DNA from: Promethearchaeota archaeon
GTDB taxonomy: Archaea; Asgardarchaeota; Lokiarchaeia; Sigyniarchaeales; SOKP01
Length of the DNA stretch: 64,000 nt
Direction: 5' to 3'
Assembly (NCBI GenBank): GCA_011364975.1
Contig: RDOE01000004.1
Span: 3,316 to 67,315, forward strand
Part shown: piece after piece, positions 29 to 48,624 of the stretch
How positions within the stretch are numbered: position 1 is the first letter of the stretch
How the letters are laid out: each line of letters begins with the position of its first letter
Made by a program: the position numbers and the translations under genes
The notes under the pieces: model-generated
What the model was told of the DNA's origin: nothing
Seen by the model: only the letters and a program-made list of their open reading frames with translations
Database searches by the model: none

Positions 29-3000
29 TTATAAATCTGGTATTAATTTAAGTAACGTAGCTACAGCACTTCCAATTTCTGTGGTTTGATTTAACTCATT
101 AATAAGATGAAGACTCTTTAGCTTTTCAATAGTTTTATCTATATCTTTTGATAATTTGAGATTTCTTTTATTTAAATATTTATTAATTTTCATAATGTCT
201 GTAGAGCCATCAAATATTGCAAATAGAATGTTTTTATCATCAGAATCCATGTGTTTTATATATTTTTGAAATTCGGCGATTAAATAATTTGTACGGGGAT
301 TGATTGCAAAGACAACTTTATCAGACTTAAGTTTTTGGATGCTCTCAAAAGATTTAATTTCCTCTATGCCTTTTGTTTTAAGATGGTTGATTAATTCTCG
401 TAAGTAAAAGTTAGATTCGAAATCTTCACTGCGAGCTATTACTATTATTTTTTTATCTACGTTATTTGGCATTGATGATTTGAGATAATCTTGGACTTTA
501 GTCTCTACGATTTGATGAGGATATAATAAGTCAGCTTCGAAAATATCCTCAATCATTTTTGTTACAGATGCGTCATCAAATACTTCACCAGAAAAGCTAA
601 TAAGTCTCTCCTTATAAACTTCTTCAAAAAAATGGTTAAAGAACTTAAGTTTCTCTTTTAAACTATTACTTGGGCGTCTTAAAAGGAGAAGTGCAACTCT
701 AGTATATTTACCTTCATTAAGTATAATTTTAAATTGTCTATAAGATAGCTCTTCTAATCCACCTACTCCTTCAGTAATCTTTGAACCAATTTCTTGTCCA
801 AATGAGGAAATGGCACTTAAAAAACCGGATATTAATGTCTCATCTATTGGTACATCCGCCAGACTTTTGCTAAAGCATGGGACTCCTCCATCACTAGTTA
901 GAATGATTATATATGGGATATTTTCCACATCAGATAATTTTTGATAAAGATTTTTCAAAGCTTCCACTTTCCTGCGTCTTTTTGGAACAACAACACCACG
1001 ATGTATGATAAAGATAAAAGCAACCAAAATTCCAACGGCAATTATGATATAAGGTACAAGATCTAGAAAGATTATGAATTCATTTATTACTCTGAAATTA
1101 GCGGAAGTTAATTGTGCGCTCTCATAATATTCTTCTCCAATATAATCAACTTTAATTTTATAATTATTTCCTACGGATAGGTCTAAAGATCCAATTGCAA
1201 TGCCATTTTCACAAATAGCAGTGAAATTATATATCAAATTATCATCATTATCTAGAATTTGAAAAAGGATAAATAACCCATCCAACGGATTACCTAATTC
1301 ATCGGTTACCCAAACTTCAAAAGAATAAGTACCATACATATATTGAGTTTGAGGAGGTTCTCTAAATTCCAGTTGGACTTGGATTTTTGGACTTATAGGA
1401 AAGCTAAAATTTAAAGAATACCCCTCTATTTTATTCGTCCCATCAAAAACAATGGTTAAATTTAAATCACCAGTAAAAGAGTTTGGTATGCCGTATAAAT
1501 AAACTAGCGTATTATTTTCCCCAATTAATCCCGTATAAATTTCTATAGTTGTTCCATATCTGAAAGTAAAAAATATCGGAAGATTCTGGAGGATTATTGA
1601 ACTATTTTCACAATAAAGATGTATTTCAAATCTTATAGTTTGACCAAATCTCATGACACTTGGTAATGGTTGCATGCTAAAGTTTGAAGTCCACTTTGGT
1701 TGGATTAGATCAAACTTTGAGGTGATATTATAAGCCACTGTGGTTGATCCGAGGTATTCGAAATATATTGTCAGATTCATCTTCCCATTAGCTATTTCCG
1801 GTATTTCATTATAACATAAACCGTTCTCATCTGTGTAAAGTTGATTGGTGACAAATGGGATATCAAGTTGATCATCATAATATGCTGAAAAGAAAATTAT
1901 TCGATTTTGAAGAGATTCACTCCCTTCTGTTATATTTATTTGTAAAGCATATCTAGCAGAATATCCAACTCTTAATACATTTGGATATTGAATAATGTTT
2001 AACATTATAGGTATTTTTCCTTGAATAATTTTCGTGATTTTCGCCGAAGATGCTGCAATACTGCTCTGTCCTTGATAATATGCATGGATAGTTATGTTCT
2101 GTCCTTTATATTGTTGAGGTATAATATATTGATAAGTGCTAATACCTTCGATATTTGTAATAGTTGTTATTATAAAATTCTCTGTTAGACCTACACTTAT
2201 ATTTAGATAAATGATTTGTCCTTGTATTGGGGTTGAATTTATAGCATAAGTTAATGTTGTTCTTATCTGAAACTCTTTTAATATTCTTAAAGTGGTCGGA
2301 ATTGAAATATCTAAAAGAGTAGCATCTTGAGGCAATATCGTAAAATTAATAATGTTACTTTGGCTATCTGCACAATTAATAGAAGAACCATTGATATATA
2401 TTGCATAACCTCCCGGTAAAAGACCCGATAGGTAAATTTGTTTCTGGTAAACCCCACTCATTAAGAATCCCAAAGATCCATTGAGTTTGAATGTTGTTCC
2501 TTGATATATATAATATGTTAAGTTAGCATTATTGTTTGGCTTTGGATTGAGGGGATCGATTTTATTAACAATAGTAGCGGTTGCTAAGATATTACCTTCT
2601 GCATATATCGGTTGAATATTTTGCAGTGAAATTTGAGTAGGAATTTTATCAATGAAGATAGTAATATTTACGTGTTTTATATCATAACCACTGGCGGAAC
2701 ATCTGATTTTTAAAGTTTCATTTTCAACAAACTGAGAATCCACTTTTTTAGTAGCATTTAATCCTGTTGTGTTCAATGTAAGATCATATAATCCATTTCC
2801 GATTTCTACAGCTTTAAAATAATTTTCAGTCATACCAATAGTACCAAGGACCAAACCTCCTGTTACAGGAATACCACCATCAGTTAAGTTGACCCGAATC
2901 ATACTATTAATGGTATCATTAACATAAGGAATATTATTAGACGATAAAACCCACTTCGAGTCTATTTCAGATGCGCCTGATACTATATTAAATTCGAAAA

Positions 3001-5794
3001 AATTTTCTGCTATAATCTTAAGAGAAGTGGTTAATACTTGCGTTTCATGAAGATATTTAGAAAACACAAAATAAATAGGATAAGTACCATTTGGGGCTCC
3101 TTCTGTGTATAGAGGAATCGAATAATTGCCTTGCCCTAAATAGGAGATATAACCAACTTGATAGGAACCAGTCCACACTCTTCCCCATAATCTAAGAGTT
3201 CCTGTAGAATTTTCATACACCTGTATCGTTGCACCAGATATCCCCCATCCTAAGTAAGTGGAATAATTGATCCCGAAATAGGCGGTCTCTCCAGAGGATA
3301 CTTGGCTAATCAATGAAGAAAATTCAGCATGAGTCTTATTAAGGATAAAAAACTCCATAATATAAGAACCAAATCGTAAAGCTTTACCAGTTTCAAGGTA
3401 ATTTGAGGTGTCATTCCAAAGAAATCGCAAATAATACTTCCCAATAGCATATTTTTCATCTAAATTTAGATTACCCTCTATTTTATCGTTATTTGAAGGA
3501 AAATGTTGAGGAAATTCGTTTAATAAGTTGCCAATTCCGTTGTATAGTTCAATCGTATAATTACCCATAGTAGATTCAAGCAAACTAAGATTATATAATA
3601 TTGAATTATAAGAATAAAAAGCTGGTAAACTCGAATATAGCACTGTGTTGTTAAACTTACCTGAAATAATGTAATTAGGTTGATATCCACGTAATGTCCA
3701 ATTTCCAAGCCTAAATGCACTAAAAATCGTAGCACTTTGAAGATTAAGGCTTGGTGTATGATTAAAAAGGAATAGATTCTCAGTAAAATCTGTTAAAGTG
3801 GGAGTTAATGCTTCGAAAATCTCCCAGTTTATACTATTTGATGCGTTTAAATCAAAAGCAGGCATATCAAGATATGAAATTGCATATCCAGATAAATTAA
3901 AGTATGGAGTATAATTCGCATAAAGCAATTGATTATAGGAAAAGCTATTGTCATATTTAATGTTCCATATACCTCTATCAGCGTTAGATCCAGGTATTGA
4001 ATAACTAGCAAAAGCTCCTAATGGTGTTTCAAAAGTGATTGCTAAACTTGATTTAAAGTTTAGGTATAATTTATCTTCTAAACTTAAATTATAAGTTAAA
4101 AATTGGAAACTATGTTCCGATCCTCCAATCCAATCGGAAATATTGATATAATGTACTCCCTCTGTGACATTATCCCATATAGGGGCGTTATCAGTATTGA
4201 TATATAAACGTGAATTAGAAATGGTTTGTTTGTAATTTATTGTAAAATAAACATCATCTAGATACGAGATGTAATCTATTTCATTATAATAATTGTTTTC
4301 AAATGCTACTCCGATTTTGAAGGCCAAATTATTTACCTTTAGGAGTTCTTCATATTCCTGGGAAAGACTAAAGCTCATATGGTGCCACGGTGTACCAGAA
4401 TAATCATCATAACTAACCTCTGCCATCGAAAAAGGAAGAACCCTTACATTTTGATAATTACTAGTTTCCAAGTCTCCAAGATAAAGGACTATAGAAGCAT
4501 CATTATCAAATTTAAAGGGATTTACTCCAGTACCATCAACATCAATTAATTTATAGCTGTAATCTAAACGAGCAACTTCATATTTCGTTGTGGTATTATA
4601 AAGGATTTCTATTGATTCAAAATTAACAGAAATTAAATCTTCATCTCCTCCATGGCTTGGAGCTCTAGCCCAAGCTCCAAAGTCAAATTTATTTATTCCA
4701 ACTAATCCATTGATTAAATTAGTTATGTTATAGGTACGCGATATAGTGCCATGATTGACATGGCCTATAATTTCTGGATTATTATATACCATTAGAGCAG
4801 TATCAGAACCATTATAAGGTATTTCTCCTTCCTTTGAAATCCAATTATTTCCATTGATGTACTTATTATTAATCCGAGCAATAATTTCATATTTATCTTC
4901 GGTTTCAAAGGTAGACTGTTCATCAAGACTCCATGTAATAGTCATTTGAGCATAATCTGCCTCATATGGTACTAAAATGTAATACCACCAAGCCGCTGAA
5001 GGGTTTCCTCCAAAAGAGTAACTACTTGGATCAATAATAAGCTTCAAACTTGAGAGTGATTCCTCGTAATATAAGTCTATGAAATCATAAAGAGGTTTGT
5101 AAATTCCACCATAAGGGCTTTCTGAATCCTTATAAAATCCTGGATTTGTGTTAAAAGAGTTAAAGTTTAATATAGTTTGATCTTCTTTCTGTATGATCCT
5201 CCCTCTTTGAATGGGTAAACTCTGAGGATTTATATCCAGTAAATTCTGTGTCCAAAAGGCAAAATCACCGGGGTAGAAAGCAGGGGTGCTTCTATCCTTG
5301 CTGTTATAGATTCTTGTTCTCCCATAATTATAATCCTTTAAATCGTATTGTATAAAATACCCATCACCACTCTGTCTTTTTTCTGTCCCCCAAAAATCGT
5401 ATTCATATTCAAAGGGAGAATCTTGAACTATTTGTTGTTTTGAATATGGTTCAATTTCAAATTGCATCGAAGATGCATTCCATAAGTTGGGTGTAGTGAT
5501 GTTAAAGTAATTATTTGGGACTGCGAGATGATCGTTTTCAGTAATTGTACTAGTAGCATTTTCAAGGGTTTTAAAATGAGTAGTATTAATTTTATTATAT
5601 CCTCCTATATCCCCAGAAATGTCAGATGAATGATAGAAACCTGGTTCATATGCAGGATCAAAATTCTGAGTATAATTATTATTATTTAAATCAACAATAC
5701 ATTCATTAAATTTAGACCCTTCAGAAATAACAAGAAATAAACAAAAAATAAATCCCATAATTGCGAATTGTGTAACTTTTTTATTTTTCTGCAA
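29..5794 (-). CDS. Giant (1921 aa) single-pass surface protein. It has an N-terminal signal/anchor, a very long sequon-rich beta-rich ectodomain with Ig-like repeats, one TM helix, and a roughly 320-aa cytoplasmic tail with a longin/roadblock-like alpha/beta module.
   Basis: Uninterrupted 5.8-kb ORF. Hydrophobic N-terminus FAIMGFIFCLFLVISEG. Dozens of N-x-S/T sequons (NITT, NASS, NATST and others). Hydrophobic span LVPYIIIAVGILVAFIFIIH is followed by basic PKRRRK. Tail motif is YIIILTSDGGVPCFSKS...DETLISGFLSAISSFGQEIG...FKIILNEGKYTRVALLLL. TTG start is preceded by a GGGGTGG SD-like box 6 nt upstream. Confidence 0.75.
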   Translation of the reverse strand: MQKNKKVTQFAIMGFIFCLFLVISEGSKFNECIVDLNNNNYTQNFDPAYEPGFYHSSDISGDIGGYNKINTTHFKTLENATSTITENDHLAVPNNYFNITTPNLWNASSMQFEIEPYSKQQIVQDSPFEYEYDFWGTEKRQSGDGYFIQYDLKDYNYGRTRIYNSKDRSTPAFYPGDFAFWTQNLLDINPQSLPIQRGRIIQKEDQTILNFNSFNTNPGFYKDSESPYGGIYKPLYDFIDLYYEESLSSLKLIIDPSSYSFGGNPSAAWWYYILVPYEADYAQMTITWSLDEQSTFETEDKYEIIARINNKYINGNNWISKEGEIPYNGSDTALMVYNNPEIIGHVNHGTISRTYNITNLINGLVGINKFDFGAWARAPSHGGDEDLISVNFESIEILYNTTTKYEVARLDYSYKLIDVDGTGVNPFKFDNDASIVLYLGDLETSNYQNVRVLPFSMAEVSYDDYSGTPWHHMSFSLSQEYEELLKVNNLAFKIGVAFENNYYNEIDYISYLDDVYFTINYKQTISNSRLYINTDNAPIWDNVTEGVHYINISDWIGGSEHSFQFLTYNLSLEDKLYLNFKSSLAITFETPLGAFASYSIPGSNADRGIWNIKYDNSFSYNQLLYANYTPYFNLSGYAISYLDMPAFDLNASNSINWEIFEALTPTLTDFTENLFLFNHTPSLNLQSATIFSAFRLGNWTLRGYQPNYIISGKFNNTVLYSSLPAFYSYNSILYNLSLLESTMGNYTIELYNGIGNLLNEFPQHFPSNNDKIEGNLNLDEKYAIGKYYLRFLWNDTSNYLETGKALRFGSYIMEFFILNKTHAEFSSLISQVSSGETAYFGINYSTYLGWGISGATIQVYENSTGTLRLWGRVWTGSYQVGYISYLGQGNYSIPLYTEGAPNGTYPIYFVFSKYLHETQVLTTSLKIIAENFFEFNIVSGASEIDSKWVLSSNNIPYVNDTINSMIRVNLTDGGIPVTGGLVLGTIGMTENYFKAVEIGNGLYDLTLNTTGLNATKKVDSQFVENETLKIRCSASGYDIKHVNITIFIDKIPTQISLQNIQPIYAEGNILATATIVNKIDPLNPKPNNNANLTYYIYQGTTFKLNGSLGFLMSGVYQKQIYLSGLLPGGYAIYINGSSINCADSQSNIINFTILPQDATLLDISIPTTLRILKEFQIRTTLTYAINSTPIQGQIIYLNISVGLTENFIITTITNIEGISTYQYIIPQQYKGQNITIHAYYQGQSSIAASSAKITKIIQGKIPIMLNIIQYPNVLRVGYSARYALQINITEGSESLQNRIIFFSAYYDDQLDIPFVTNQLYTDENGLCYNEIPEIANGKMNLTIYFEYLGSTTVAYNITSKFDLIQPKWTSNFSMQPLPSVMRFGQTIRFEIHLYCENSSIILQNLPIFFTFRYGTTIEIYTGLIGENNTLVYLYGIPNSFTGDLNLTIVFDGTNKIEGYSLNFSFPISPKIQVQLEFREPPQTQYMYGTYSFEVWVTDELGNPLDGLFILFQILDNDDNLIYNFTAICENGIAIGSLDLSVGNNYKIKVDYIGEEYYESAQLTSANFRVINEFIIFLDLVPYIIIAVGILVAFIFIIHRGVVVPKRRRKVEALKNLYQKLSDVENIPYIIILTSDGGVPCFSKSLADVPIDETLISGFLSAISSFGQEIGSKITEGVGGLEELSYRQFKIILNEGKYTRVALLLLRRPSNSLKEKLKFFNHFFEEVYKERLISFSGEVFDDASVTKMIEDIFEADLLYPHQIVETKVQDYLKSSMPNNVDKKIIVIARSEDFESNFYLRELINHLKTKGIEEIKSFESIQKLKSDKVVFAINPRTNYLIAEFQKYIKHMDSDDKNILFAIFDGSTDIMKINKYLNKRNLKLSKDIDKTIEKLKSLHLINELNQTTEIGSAVATLLKLIPDL

Positions 5795-43801: not shown

Positions 43802-45766
43802 ATGGTAGAAACTGAAAATACAGATGAGGAACCAAGAATCTTCGTGGCTATATGCCAATGAGGAATTAATGTTGCTGAAATAATTGAAACTCATTCACTG
43901 GCTGAATTTACCAAAACGTTACCAAATGTCGTAGATGCTCTTGATTATATAAGCCTTTGTACAGAACCTGGTGCTGAATTTATCAAAGAAAAAATGATTG
44001 AAAGCAACGCAAATAGGTTAGTAGTTGCCTCATGTACTCCAAAAACTCATGAACCTGTTTTTAAAAGCGTTCTTGAATCTATGGGATTAGATTCATCCTA
44101 TCTTGAATTTGTAAACATTCGTGAGCATGCAAGTTTTGTCCATCGCCAAGATAAACCAGGAGCTCAAATGACAGCAGAGGATGCTATTCGTTCTGGCGTG
44201 GCAAGAGCTGCAGTTTTAGAAAAGATTTTAGTAAAAGAAGTCGATATCACAAAAAAGGCGTTAATAATCGGTGGAGGTGTAGCAGGCTTAGTTGCGGGAA
44301 TTGATTTAGCTGAGGAAGGATTTGAAGTACATTTAGTTGAAAAATCTCCAACTATTGGTGGTAAAATGGCTATGCTAGATAGAACTTTTCCTACTGATGA
44401 TTGTAGTATATGAATATTGGGACCCGTGATGTTACAAGCAGCAAGAACTCCCGGATTCAATATTTATACTTATAGCGAACTAGAGGATGTAAGTGGTTTT
44501 GTAGGTAATTTTAAAGCAAAGATCCGTAAAAGGGCGAGATATGTAACTAATGATTGTAATGGTTGTGGTTCATGCTTTGAAGTATGTCCTGCCTATGGAT
44601 ATGATGAATTTAATGAAGGAATGAACCCACGAAAAGCGATTTATGTATCATTTGCTCAAGCAGTTCCGTCAATGGCACAAATCGATATGAATAGATGTAT
44701 TAAATGTGGTATGTGCAAAGAAGTATGTGAAGTTAAGGCTGTTGATTTTGATCAAAAGGATGAAATCATAGAACTTGAAGTTGGATCTATTATTGTTGCT
44801 ACTGGTTGGGATGAATATGAACCTGATAAAGGCTATTTAGGGTATAAGGTATACCCAAATGTTATAACTCAAATGAAGCTTGAACGAATGCTTGCTCCTA
44901 ATGGTCCTACTGTTGGGCATTTAGTCCGTCCTTCAGATGGAAAAAAGCCAGAAAGAATTTTATTCATCCAATGTGTAGGTTCAAGGGACTTAAACAAACA
45001 AACGTATTGCAGTGCGGGAGTATGTTGCATGATTTCAATAAAAAATACAAAACTCATTAAACAGCATTATCCCGATATTGATATCACTGTTGCTTATATG
45101 GATATAAGAGCTGCTGGAAAAGATTATGAAGAGTATTTTACTGCATCACGAGCGGAAGGAATTAGATATGTAAGAACCAATGTTTCAAAAATCTATCAGG
45201 ATCCTGAAACAAAAAACCTTAAAGTAATTCTTCAAAATACTTTAAGTAATACAGGACTAATAGAATTTGAATACGATCTAGTAGTTTTATCGTGTGCTAT
45301 GGTACCTGCTATTGGTGTTGATAAAATTGGTAAAATACTAAAACTTGAGACTTCTCAGGATGGCTTCTTTAAAGAATTTCATTCGCGGTTAAACCCAATT
45401 GACACAAAAATCCCTGGAATTGTTTTAGCTGGTGTCGCTCAAGGTCCAAAATCAATAGCAGAGTCAATTTCACAAGGAAGAGCTGCTGCATCTTCTTTAG
45501 CTCGATTAATGAGTAAAGAAAAATACAGAATTTTATTAATCAGAGCTACTGTAGATAAGGATAAATGCGCTAAATGTGGACTTTGTGAACTAAATTGTCC
45601 ATATAATGCGATAAAATTAGAACCGGATGGAGCCGAGGTCAATGAAATTTTATGTAGAGGATGTGGTACGTGTCTAGCTAATTGTCCTTCTGAAGCAATC
45701 ACTCTCAGGTATTATCGTGAACCTCAATATGAAAAACAAATCGATGCTATACTAGAGGAAATATAG
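43802..45766 (+). CDS. hdrA: Heterodisulfide reductase subunit A (HdrA) homolog, a selenoprotein with two in-frame UGA (Sec) codons.
   Basis: One reading frame runs from ATG 43802 to TAG 45766 (654 aa). It is interrupted only by TGA at 43859..43861 (VAICQ-U-GINV, the CxCGxNI motif) and at 44411..44413 (FPTDDCSI-U-ILGP, the DCSxCIL motif). Other motifs: IIGGGVAGL (FAD) and two C-terminal ferredoxin motifs, CAKCGLCELNCP and CRGCGTCLANCP. The ORF track shows only fragments 43994..44413 and 44417..45766. Confidence 0.85.
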
Positions 45767-45779
45767 GGAGGTGGATTAA

Positions 45780-46247
45780 ATGGCAACTCAGGATAGAATC
45801 AAGATTTTAGCGTTCATGTGTTGGAAATGAGGATATGGAGCAGGAGATATGGCTGGAACAATACGCGCTCAATATCCTGCTACTATTCGCCCTATTAGAA
45901 TAAATTGTACCGGAAGAGTAACTCCTAGTCTTATGATGCGAGCAATTGGTAAAGGCGCAGATGGAATCATAGTTGCGGGATGATATGAAGGAGAATGCGA
46001 TTATGAAACAGGAAATTTAGTTGCGGCCAAAAATGTTAAATATACAAAAGAGATATTAAAAATTGCCGGTGTTTCACCAGAAAGAGTACAAATGTTCCAT
46101 TGTAGTGCCGCAGAAGGCCAGAAATTTCAAGAAGAGATGACTAGAGTTTCAAAAATTATTGAGGAATTAGGCAATAACCCTATTAAAGAATCGATCAAAC
46201 TTGAAAAAGAAAAGGAAACTAATACCGTAGAAAAATCAACAAATTAA
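45780..46247 (+). CDS. vhuD: MvhD/VhuD-type hydrogenase delta subunit homolog, a selenoprotein with two in-frame UGA (Sec) codons.
   Basis: Absent from the ORF track. ATG 45780 is preceded by GGGAGGTGG. The frame is open to TAA 46245..46247 (155 aa) except for TGA at 45828..45830 (AFMCWK-U-GYGAGDMAG) and 45981..45983 (IIVAG-U-YEGECDY). Both sit at the conserved MvhD Cys positions (FxCxWCxYxGAD and GCxxGxCHY). Confidence 0.8.
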
Positions 46248-46316
46248 ACCGAAAGAATGAATTTTACGAAAAAAAATTAGTCGTAAAATGACGAACCATT
46301 ATGCCATGGTTTCGGT
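46248..46316 (+). promoter_or_regulatory. Candidate SECIS element in the 3' UTR of hdrA-vhuD.
   Basis: Outer stem is ACCGAAA (46248..46254) with TTTCGGT (46310..46316). The internal hairpin ATTTTACGA (46261..46269) with TCGTAAAAT (46281..46289) forms a 9-bp stem capped by the A-rich loop AAAAAAATTAG. Below the stem, 5' TGA (46258..46260) faces 3' GAC (46290..46292), allowing tandem sheared G-A/A-G pairs (G46259-A46291, A46260-G46290). Confidence 0.5.
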
Positions 46317-46331
46317 ATTTTAGAATTTTTA

Positions 46332-46361
46332 AGAATTAGAAATATTACTACTTCTAATTTT
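46332..46361 (+). terminator. Hairpin plus T-tract after the SECIS candidate, a possible operon terminator.
   Basis: AATTAGAA (46334..46341) and TTCTAATT (46352..46359) are exact reverse complements. The stem extends by a G-T and an A-T pair, and a T-run follows. Confidence 0.3.
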
Positions 46362-46501
46362 GAAGTTTAACTCTATTAAACTTCTAATAATTTAAATTAT
46401 AAATGTATAAATAATACGAAAGCTAGTTTTATCCTAATCCAAATTTAATTTAAAAATGGATTTAAGTCATTAATAATATAAATGAGTTTAGATGATGAAA
46501 A

Positions 46502-47197
46502 ATGGGAGAAACAACACCAAGTAAACTTAAGTTTTCTGTTACAGCCCCCTCTGGAGCAACAAAGGTAGTTGCACTTATGGCTGCTCTTGTATTAATTCGC
46601 GAAGGAATATGGCTTTTTTGGAATACTGCAGATATAAATATCTTTTTTGGAATTATGGAAATAATCCTAGCAGGAATTTTAATTATTGTTCTAAATATAG
46701 TTGATTTTGGAGTGCCTTTCTTTAAGAAACTCTTTTTATGGTGGATAATACTAATTTTAGGAATTTTAGTATTGATGTTCGAAATATTCGCTTCTGGATA
46801 CGACATTTTAACAGCAGCGTCTACAGGATTCTTACTAGGCGGTCTATTAGTAGTAATTGCAGCTATTCTTGAACTTGTTGCGAGTAAACAGAAAATGAAA
46901 GCTTCTCAGATTGTTGCTCTGTTTGGAGCGGCATATACGATCTTTGAGGTTATTTTATTGTTTTTAAATCCATCAACACAAACTATCTATCATGGAATTC
47001 TCGGAATAATATTTGTTGCATTATTACTGATTTCAATGCAAAAAAAGATAGATTTAAAAATCAGATATGAGTGGTGGGTTGTTTTAATTATCGGTTTTGT
47101 ACTTTATTCCTGGGTAACTTCAATACCATCAGTAACCTTCGGAACTGGTGGGACTATAGTATTGATCTCCTTTATATTGATGTTATTAGCCCTTTAA
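46502..47197 (+). CDS. Polytopic membrane protein, unknown function.
   Basis: 231 aa with about 6-7 hydrophobic helices. The antisense ORF 46462..46806 is judged a shadow. Confidence 0.55.
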   Translation: MGETTPSKLKFSVTAPSGATKVVALMAALVLIREGIWLFWNTADINIFFGIMEIILAGILIIVLNIVDFGVPFFKKLFLWWIILILGILVLMFEIFASGYDILTAASTGFLLGGLLVVIAAILELVASKQKMKASQIVALFGAAYTIFEVILLFLNPSTQTIYHGILGIIFVALLLISMQKKIDLKIRYEWWVVLIIGFVLYSWVTSIPSVTFGTGGTIVLISFILMLLAL

Positions 47198-47316: not shown

Positions 47317-48624
47317 ATGGGAAAAGATCCTAAAACAACCGCTGAAAATCAATTAAAAAAAGCAGAGCAACTATATAAAGCACGGCAATTTAAAAAAGCG
47401 GGCAAGAATTTTCATTCAGCGGGTATTTCTTTTCTTAAACTAGAAGAATATGAAATAGCTAAAAATTGTTTTCTTGAGGCGATAAAACCATTTTTAGAAT
47501 TAGACAAATACGATACGATTTTAGAACTAATACGAAAGGCAAGCGAAGCTTGTTTGCAAAATAATCAATATTCAGAAGCGTTCCGACTTTATAAAGATAC
47601 AATGAACCACATCCCTAAATTAAAGAGTGAAACAGATAAAAATGATAATTATGTTCTCTTTTCTGTTTTATCCTATCTATGTTTACATGCCAATGGTGCT
47701 CCTGAGGAAGGATTAGATTATATTAAAAGAAATAGAAATAAGATAGACAATGACTTCTTCAAAGAAAATAATTTGATTCAATTAATTTCAGAGTTAACAC
47801 TTTCCATCAGAGATAAAACGGAGAAATATCTTGAAAACATTCAAAATAATCTTAATCAATTTAAATTAAGAGATCCGGAAGTAAAATTGTTAAAAGACGT
47901 TATACTGTTGACGAAATTTCAGCTTTTAATTGAAAGTTCTTTAATCTTAGATAAGGACACTTATACTACCAATGACATTATTAATTTAAATGTGGAGTTA
48001 GACACCAATCCTCTCATTCAAGTGCTTAATAACTCATTTTTTAAATTTAAAATCAATAGTTTTCAAATTATTAAACTAATTGTAAGTCTTTCGGATAATT
48101 TAACCACCAATAAAAAGCCAGACTTACCGTTTTCATTAGATATTGGTAGTAAAATTACTTTACCTTTTACATTAAAACCTCACTTTCAATTGGATAACCC
48201 AAAGATAGGCCCTATAAACTTAACGTTTGAATTGAATAATCTACTAATTTTTAATTATGATACCTCCGTTATAATCCCAAATTTAATTTCACCCCCTGCC
48301 TCCTTAGAGGCTTCAATAAAGAATTTACGCCCACCACTTTTAGATCAATCATTTCCATTAGAAATTTTAATTGAAAATCGAAGCCAAGGAGAAGCGCTAG
48401 ATGTAAATATTGATGTTGAATTTCCTGAAGAGCTTAAACTTATGAGAGGCACCACAAATAAGCAAATATATTCATTAAGAAGTAATGAAAATTTAAAATG
48501 GGAGGTCAACCTAAAACCCCTTGATGTAGGAGATTTCATCATTAAAATAAGTATAAAATTTAAAGATCCTGATGATAATCAAATCAACGATGTAAAAGAA
48601 TTCCCCTTTTCAATAAAAATGTAA
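47317..48624 (+). CDS. Two-domain protein: an N-terminal SNAP/TPR-like alpha-solenoid and a C-terminal Ig-like beta-sandwich (CARDB/ASH-like).
   Basis: 435 aa. N-terminal helical-hairpin pattern QLKKAEQLYKARQFKKAGKNFHSAGISFLKLEEYEIAKNCFLEAIKPFLEL. C-terminal strand pattern PLEILIENRSQGEALDVNIDVEFPEELKL...WEVNLKPLDVGDFIIKISIKFKD. Confidence 0.5.
   Translation: MGKDPKTTAENQLKKAEQLYKARQFKKAGKNFHSAGISFLKLEEYEIAKNCFLEAIKPFLELDKYDTILELIRKASEACLQNNQYSEAFRLYKDTMNHIPKLKSETDKNDNYVLFSVLSYLCLHANGAPEEGLDYIKRNRNKIDNDFFKENNLIQLISELTLSIRDKTEKYLENIQNNLNQFKLRDPEVKLLKDVILLTKFQLLIESSLILDKDTYTTNDIINLNVELDTNPLIQVLNNSFFKFKINSFQIIKLIVSLSDNLTTNKKPDLPFSLDIGSKITLPFTLKPHFQLDNPKIGPINLTFELNNLLIFNYDTSVIIPNLISPPASLEASIKNLRPPLLDQSFPLEILIENRSQGEALDVNIDVEFPEELKLMRGTTNKQIYSLRSNENLKWEVNLKPLDVGDFIIKISIKFKDPDDNQINDVKEFPFSIKM

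Follow-up and report, generated by a model that had tools for sequence, protein, structure and literature searches.

The closest described relatives of the element considered here are the Lokiarchaeal eukaryote-like selenocysteine insertion sequences (SECIS), or lokiSECIS, defined by Mariotti et al. (2016, Mol Biol Evol 33:2441, PMC4989117). In a lokiSECIS, AUGA always precedes a stem of 9 bp, and the apical loop of 11 nt has mostly A among its first five bases and an ultraconserved G, usually after A, as its last; the stem is followed by GA, or by AA in VhuU (PMC4989117). In that study every HdrA-VhuD tandem had just one lokiSECIS, which lay downstream of VhuD, and it was proposed that HdrA and VhuD share it on a polycistronic mRNA, with up to six UGAs spread over ~2 kb. 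A survey of more than 400 Asgard genomes by Huang, Xiao and Zhang (2024, ISME J, PMC11227280) found that the adjacent hdrA and frhD/vhuD genes have one eukaryote-like type I structure in common. A further type is known from VhuD of Methanococcales and Methanopyrus, namely a canonical archaeal SECIS with an extra stem in addition to an AUGA...GAC/AAC motif (PMC4989117). Here we analyzed a hdrA-vhuD locus in a 64,000-nt, AT-rich stretch of DNA (G+C 31%) from a Promethearchaeota archaeon (contig RDOE01000004.1, positions 3,316 to 67,315), referred to below as the window. The segment 46248-46316, immediately downstream of vhuD, is very probably the lokiSECIS of a bicistronic hdrA-vhuD mRNA, shared by both genes. 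Features are on the forward strand unless indicated otherwise.

The identities of the two genes are secure. The hdrA gene (heterodisulfide reductase subunit A-like; 43802-45766, 654 codons, stop UAG) contains upon translation two in-frame UGAs, at 43859-43861 (aa 20) and 44411-44413 (aa 204). The vhuD/mvhD gene (hydrogenase delta subunit; 45780-46247, 155 codons, stop UAA at 46245-46247) likewise contains two, at 45828-45830 (aa 17) and 45981-45983 (aa 68). Pfam assigns Fer4 and FAD/NAD domains to the former and FlpD (methyl-viologen-reducing hydrogenase delta subunit, E = 2.5e-42) to the latter. HdrA matches PDB 5odc_A HdrA (E = 1.5e-83), in which Cys stands opposite both hdrA UGAs, within the contexts CHCG for the first and DCSICIL for the second. 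Both vhuD UGAs face Cys in MvhD 9sw2_D and X in VhuD 9sfi_K, where we read the X residues as selenocysteine (Sec). The spacer between the two genes (45767-45779) is 13 nt long, as an initial annotation of this DNA had stated, and includes a Shine-Dalgarno-like GGAGGUG at 45767-45773; in the relatives described below it is estimated at ~10-21 nt (75 of the 77 loci). As 13 nt leave no space for a promoter or a terminator, hdrA and vhuD are likely to be co-transcribed, judging from the sequence. The UGAs are located 2398 and 1846 nt (hdrA) and 429 and 276 nt (vhuD) upstream of the AUGA of the element, so that the distance of up to about 2.4 kb given in the annotation is correct.

The element begins 1 nt past the vhuD stop codon, and its AUGA lies 10 nt past it. 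In the minimum free energy structure given by RNAfold, which returns every helix of a three-helix shape, the 5' strand of the lower stem or helix I (ACCGAA, 46248-46253) pairs with UUCGGU (46311-46316). Next comes the junction AGA (46254-46256), in the 5' part of the internal loop, then AUGA (46257-46260), read from the sequence as the 5' half of the core. Helix II consists of nine perfect Watson-Crick pairs between AUUUUACGA (46261-46269) and UCGUAAAAU (46281-46289), capped by the 11-nt apical loop AAAAAAAUUAG (46270-46280), which is A-rich and ends with UAG. The 3' half of the core, GA (46290-46291) and then C (46292), would allow the tandem sheared pairs G59.A91 and A60.G90. A GA linker (46293-46294) leads to a side hairpin (ACCAU 46295-46299, loop UAUGCC, AUGGU 46306-46310) that abuts the 3' strand of helix I. 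The annotation had described a hairpin with a 9-bp stem and an A-rich loop right after the vhuD stop, built on a kink-turn-type AUGA/GA core, and each of these components was recovered at the coordinates it gave, with the sheared pairing as a prediction. It had also assigned UGAC to the 3' side of the core: GA and the following C do belong there, but U46289 is part of the stem. Both of the outer stems that it proposed are real; as drawn they overlapped by one base (T46310/46311), whereas the fold yields two abutting helices of 6 bp and 5 bp. The RNAfold z-scores of the element (-2.6 and -2.3) are modest, as expected of an AU-rich RNA. Because folding energy alone is unconvincing, the case was built on a comparison with related loci.

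The C-terminal 449 residues of HdrA were used to fetch 80 loci from GTDB representative genomes. All of them are from Asgard metagenome-assembled genomes, mostly labelled Promethearchaeota, and show 79-90% protein identity (90% for the nearest HdrA). Four of the 80 loci are cut by a contig end and 76 are complete; counts given out of 77 include the window and these 76. The element was present at the same place in 76/76 complete loci, and all four UGA codons were kept wherever the contigs of the 80 loci cover them. In a MAFFT alignment (A2), 88% of the cells were paired in the three-helix structure, compared with 76% in column shuffles, none of which reached the observed value (0/500), and with 31-49% when the 3' partner was slid. 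The comparison of orthologous 3' regions that the annotation had proposed thus supported both the stem and the core. In helix II, compensatory, two-sided changes were found at 9/9 pairs (pair 20/40, for instance, is GC in 30, UA in 23 and AU in 17), and 89.6% of the cells were paired versus 28-49% in slid controls. The side hairpin was 91-92% paired, with a loop of 3-6 nt, and its pair 4 covaries (AU 42, UA 17, UG 8, CG 2). Helix I, with its CCGA/UCGG, is nearly invariant in sequence and therefore yields little covariation. In the locus L062, helix I is wholly swapped to AUGUGU/ACACAU and the side hairpin to another pairing sequence, and the fold is unchanged. RNAalifold predicted the same three helices when no structure was supplied, and a model-based realignment (A4) gave the same numbers as the MAFFT alignment. 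Combined, these results provide good support for a conserved three-helix architecture in which a lower helix and a 5-bp side hairpin, placed between GA(C) and the lower helix, accompany the core hairpin.

The most conserved positions of the element are unpaired bases. The UGA of AUGA, the GA after the stem, the AAA at loop positions 3-5 and the last G of the loop are invariant in 76/76 distinct sequences, in keeping with the GA core that had been annotated. The first A of AUGA is kept in 74/76 (G in the other 2); the G two nucleotides upstream of AUGA and the C after GA are each kept in 75/76. The loop has 11 nt in 69/76, and UA precedes its last G in at least 72/76. The first pair of helix II, beside the core, is non-canonical in 30/76 sequences. 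Departures from the loop geometry were seen in seven loci (L005, L006, L010, L011, L029, L032 and L044), which have an apical loop of 12 or 13 nt, against the constant length of 11 nt reported for lokiSECIS; in L005, L029 and L032 the loop terminates with UUUG instead of UAG.

Conservation ends with helix I. The sequence 3' of it is unconserved in the alignment of the relatives, and the AU-rich hairpin of the window (46334-46361; AAUUAGAA 46334-46341 and UUCUAAUU 46352-46359, then UU), which is present in the RNAfold structure together with a T-run as annotated, is specific to the window and lies outside the conserved element. Oligo-T is an archaeal transcription terminator. A T5 tract at 46326-46330 is likely part of such a termination signal, and a run of at least five T begins at most 30 nt past helix I in 58/77 loci. 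A scan for bacterial-type terminators and promoters, a type of scan that is uninformative for an archaeon, returned nothing at the element.

The number of UGAs in hdrA varies among the relatives. In 27 of them (e.g. L021-L024) a third UGA stands at aa 53, a codon for Cys in the window (43958-43960); the position is therefore a Sec/Cys polymorphism among close relatives with the same single SECIS. The hdrA gene of L046 has four UGAs, at aa 20, 53, 78 and 204.

The occurrence of the element in the window is more than expected by chance. When both strands of the window were scanned for a strict pattern (ATGA, 9 paired bases, 11-nt loop, GA), one occurrence was obtained, against a mean of 0.015 in dinucleotide-preserving shuffles. 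Among the pattern scans only this strict form is informative: a loose pattern (stems of 7-12 bp, loops of 8-20 nt, one mismatch) gave dozens of matches in the window, all of them with weak stems and non-A loops, and these were taken as chance. Two covariance models were considered, R1 for the whole element and R2 for the core only. With R1 the element scored 79.1 bits (E = 2e-20) and the runner-up in the window 11.7 bits (E ~0.9, filters off). R2 likewise matched the window a single time and, across 639 kb of related loci, each locus exactly once, with no further match at E up to 1; nor were lokiSECIS copies found beside other gene families in these 639 kb.

A search independent of the motif led to the same picture. 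RNAalifold was slid along an alignment of 64 operons that began 150 nt upstream of hdrA and reached 60 nt beyond the element. The segments covering the SECIS ranked first (-4.4 kcal/mol), and no other covariation-supported structure was detected anywhere in these operons, upstream of hdrA included. From -20 to +60 nt around each of the four UGAs the energies ranged from 0 to -1.4 kcal/mol, i.e. essentially no structure. A segment inside hdrA (44995-45094) has a consensus energy of -3.8 kcal/mol without covariation support, which probably stems from the conservation of the coding sequence. The statement of the annotation that nothing comparable lies upstream of hdrA was thus borne out, by R1 and R2 in the window and by the scan of the 64 operons, and the search for a rival SECIS inside or upstream of hdrA found none in either set. 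For hdrA, no bacterial-type local hairpin, 5' untranslated element or second lokiSECIS is visible.

The stop codons of the two genes fit an element that recodes distant upstream UGAs, among them any that would terminate hdrA, and not a UGA abutting it. The hdrA stop is UAG in 45/77 loci, UAA in 32/77 and UGA in 0/77. The vhuD stop is UGA in 19/77, located inside AUGA in 12 and 3 nt before AUGA in 7. In 35 other loci it is a UAG within the 5' internal loop, which makes the 5' strand of helix I part of the coding sequence. As the loci are related, these counts are not independent events. The same stop-codon argument was made by Mariotti et al. (2016), who noted that HdrA never ends in UGA (PMC4989117). 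In relatives the vhuD stop is usually inside the element (e.g. L024:5826, L005:5820), while the UAA of the window stands just before helix I; where the stop is inside the element, helix I and the core must be unwound by a ribosome that terminates there.

These observations suggest the following mode of action. Placed at the foot of a helix that is fixed at 9 bp and topped by an 11-nt A-rich loop, the AUGA/GA core would form a kink-turn-like platform, framed as a three-way junction by the lower helix CCGA/UCGG and the small side hairpin. The platform would be recognised by a further factor together with the Sec-specific elongation factor and, from the 3' end of the mRNA, would bring Sec-tRNA(Sec) to ribosomes paused at the four UGAs, two in hdrA and two in vhuD. 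The co-transcription of the two genes, the kink-turn geometry, the nature of the binding factor and the action on the hdrA UGAs are the presumptive parts of this scheme.

The remaining doubt is whether the hdrA UGAs truly depend on the element. It could be the SECIS of vhuD only, with the hdrA UGAs decoded via another signal, for instance a local context that has little structure or works through a protein, or an element acting in trans. The action of a SECIS across a cistron boundary over 2.4 kb has never been demonstrated, HdrA and VhuD of methanogens each have their own SECIS (PMC4989117), and our searches detect only conserved secondary structure or lokiSECIS-like motifs. Yet neither the window nor the 76 loci gave a second lokiSECIS-type match, none of the UGAs is surrounded by conserved structure (0 to -1.4 kcal/mol between -20 and +60 nt), and the 13-nt spacer is too short to hold a 3' untranslated element. 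Moreover, hdrA stops are never UGA and vhuD stops often are, which is expected if the downstream element also reads hdrA. We therefore consider a signal restricted to vhuD improbable. A sharing of one element by both cistrons, as the annotation had suggested, is supported by the comparison of loci and was already published (PMC4989117), its action on hdrA being the part that would have to be deduced.

Two explanations dispense with Sec insertion by the element altogether. It might be a 3'-end structure with another purpose, such as a terminator, a stabiliser or a kink-turn bound by L7Ae, kink-turns being common L7Ae sites in archaea. Its position at the 3' end of the operon, the T runs that follow it and weak, sub-threshold matches nearby to C/D-box small nucleolar RNA (snoRNA) families of Rfam (e.g. 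snoU18, 18 bits, E = 1.1) could be read in this way; these matches are, however, far under the gathering score. A terminator or stabiliser leaves unexplained the invariant unpaired AUGA, GA, AAA and G, as well as a geometry fixed at 9 bp plus 11 nt while the bases of the stem vary freely. The motif also occurs only once in 64 kb holding ~45 genes, and it is the one reported downstream of all Lokiarchaeal selenoprotein gene families but SPS, whose form is a variant, and of no other genes (PMC4989117). This makes a function unrelated to Sec very unlikely. Hardly credible is the idea that the in-frame UGAs are not Sec codons and reflect pseudogenes, UGA reassignment or readthrough, with no need for a SECIS. 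Nothing specific speaks for it, apart from the lack of Sec machinery genes and of tRNA-Sec in the window. The 80 loci, which represent many Asgard lineages and show 79-90% protein identity, keep the four UGAs at every one of these codons that they cover; the UGAs align with catalytic or structural Cys/Sec positions; and UGA is the stop codon of 7/47 long open reading frames of the window.

Several points nevertheless weigh against a lokiSECIS shared by hdrA and vhuD. The loci have a common ancestry, so that counts of alignment cells overstate the number of independent events, and all 80 carry UGAs, which leaves no Cys-type control in which the element would be absent without Sec. Co-transcription of the two genes has the 13-nt gap as its sole basis. 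In the literature, no published experiment shows Sec insertion directed by any lokiSECIS, a lokiarchaeal SECIS was inactive in Methanococcus maripaludis (PMC11881835), and Asgard archaea have no known homologue of SBP2 (PMC4989117, PMC11881835). Finally, the SECIS families of Rfam had no match at 46200-46420 even at E up to 10, where only chance-level microRNA and snoRNA matches were obtained.

Both the element and its sharing by hdrA and vhuD were published in 2016 and extended in 2024, and the window therefore adds only one more orthologous copy. The comparison of 76 loci provides independent support for the model of those papers, in the form of explicit covariation counts and of searches for a second element that found none. 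The element bears on the archaeal origin of the eukaryotic Sec insertion signal and on the question of recoding in two cistrons by one 3' signal; both points were raised in 2016 from the first Lokiarchaeum genome, and several hundred Asgard genomes were added in 2024. We also entertain, as a long shot, the view that the hdrA-vhuD lokiSECIS is a conserved k-junction-like three-way junction, undescribed in the main texts of both Asgard SECIS papers, with gene-specific additions that might aid action across cistrons over ~2.4 kb or survival under terminating ribosomes. That the three-helix shape is new and has this function is speculative. The lower helix and the side hairpin define a fuller construct for functional tests of lokiSECIS, of which the one heterologous test so far failed.

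The surroundings of the locus were also inspected. A scan for read-through open reading frames in the window gave no selenoprotein genes apart from hdrA and vhuD, and Rfam at gathering thresholds returned zero RNA families over the whole 64 kb, so that known RNAs, tRNA and rRNA included, were not seen. The hdrA-vhuD pair is isolated: mvhA/G and hdrB/C are not among its neighbours, which include genes for OMP decarboxylase, DUF4256, histidyl-tRNA synthetase and aldehyde:ferredoxin oxidoreductase. One protein encoded nearby was otherwise present only on two short Logan SRA contigs. A 231-aa predicted membrane protein without a Pfam match is encoded at 46502-47197 (+), after the SECIS and before the next gene (47317-48624), which likewise has no Pfam match. 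In at least two relatives examined by eye (L049 and L062), a gene with a MGKD...-like start lies directly 3' of the SECIS, ~60-160 nt away, and the membrane protein gene therefore looks inserted in the lineage of the window. A very long open reading frame (29-5794, minus strand, 1921 aa) occupies the left edge of the window.

The element can be placed with respect to kink-turns and to the three SECIS groups. Work from the Lilley laboratory reportedly places the tandem G.A/A.G pairs of a kink-turn at the start of one helix and, in a k-junction, inserts a third helix. A non-canonical pair after the G.A pairs is typical of the kink-turn helix. The element resembles a kink-turn in the tandem G.A/A.G pairs predicted at the start of helix II and in the first pair of this helix, non-canonical in 30/76 sequences as mentioned above, and a k-junction in having its third helix on the strand opposite the AUGA strand. 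It differs from them in the loop of the AUGA strand, which has 5 nt instead of 3, and in three additional nucleotides between GA and the side hairpin.

With the SECIS of VhuD in Methanococcales and Methanopyrus the element shares the gene, the 3' position, AUGA opposite GAC and a closing extra stem (PMC4989117). The asymmetric GAA/A bulge with G-C clamps found there is missing here, as the nine AU-rich base pairs of helix II follow one another without a break; moreover, hdrA of these methanogens has its own SECIS. The likeness to eukaryotic type I SECIS (Rfam RF00031, SECIS_1) lies in the AUGA/GA bases, which would form the non-Watson-Crick quartet, in the upper helix, in unpaired A's on the 5' side of the apical loop, in the 3' untranslated location and in a presumed action at a distance. 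Against this, the helix of lokiSECIS is shorter (PMC4989117), and the Asgard element has an extra hairpin on the 3' side of the internal loop, probably belongs to a polycistronic mRNA, has no known SBP2 in its organisms and stays unmatched by the Rfam model even with E allowed up to 10. It fits the Asgard type I eukaryote-like SECIS, with the core GA_[G/A]A, an upper stem of 7-15 bp and an apical loop of 8-20 nt (PMC11227280). That work gives family-specific lower-stem pairs for frhA and selD only, and the lower stem and side hairpin of hdrA-vhuD are unmentioned. With respect to lokiSECIS, the differences are the number of UGAs, four here versus up to six in PMC4989117, and the lower helix CCGA/UCGG and the side hairpin, which are not in the main text of that paper. 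In all other respects the two agree: AUGA, the 9-bp stem, the 11-nt loop with an A-rich start and a terminal AG, and GA are found without any difference in the core, and the locus has the same position just past VhuD, one copy per gene pair, a very short gap between the genes, and more than one UGA within HdrA, whose stop is never UGA.

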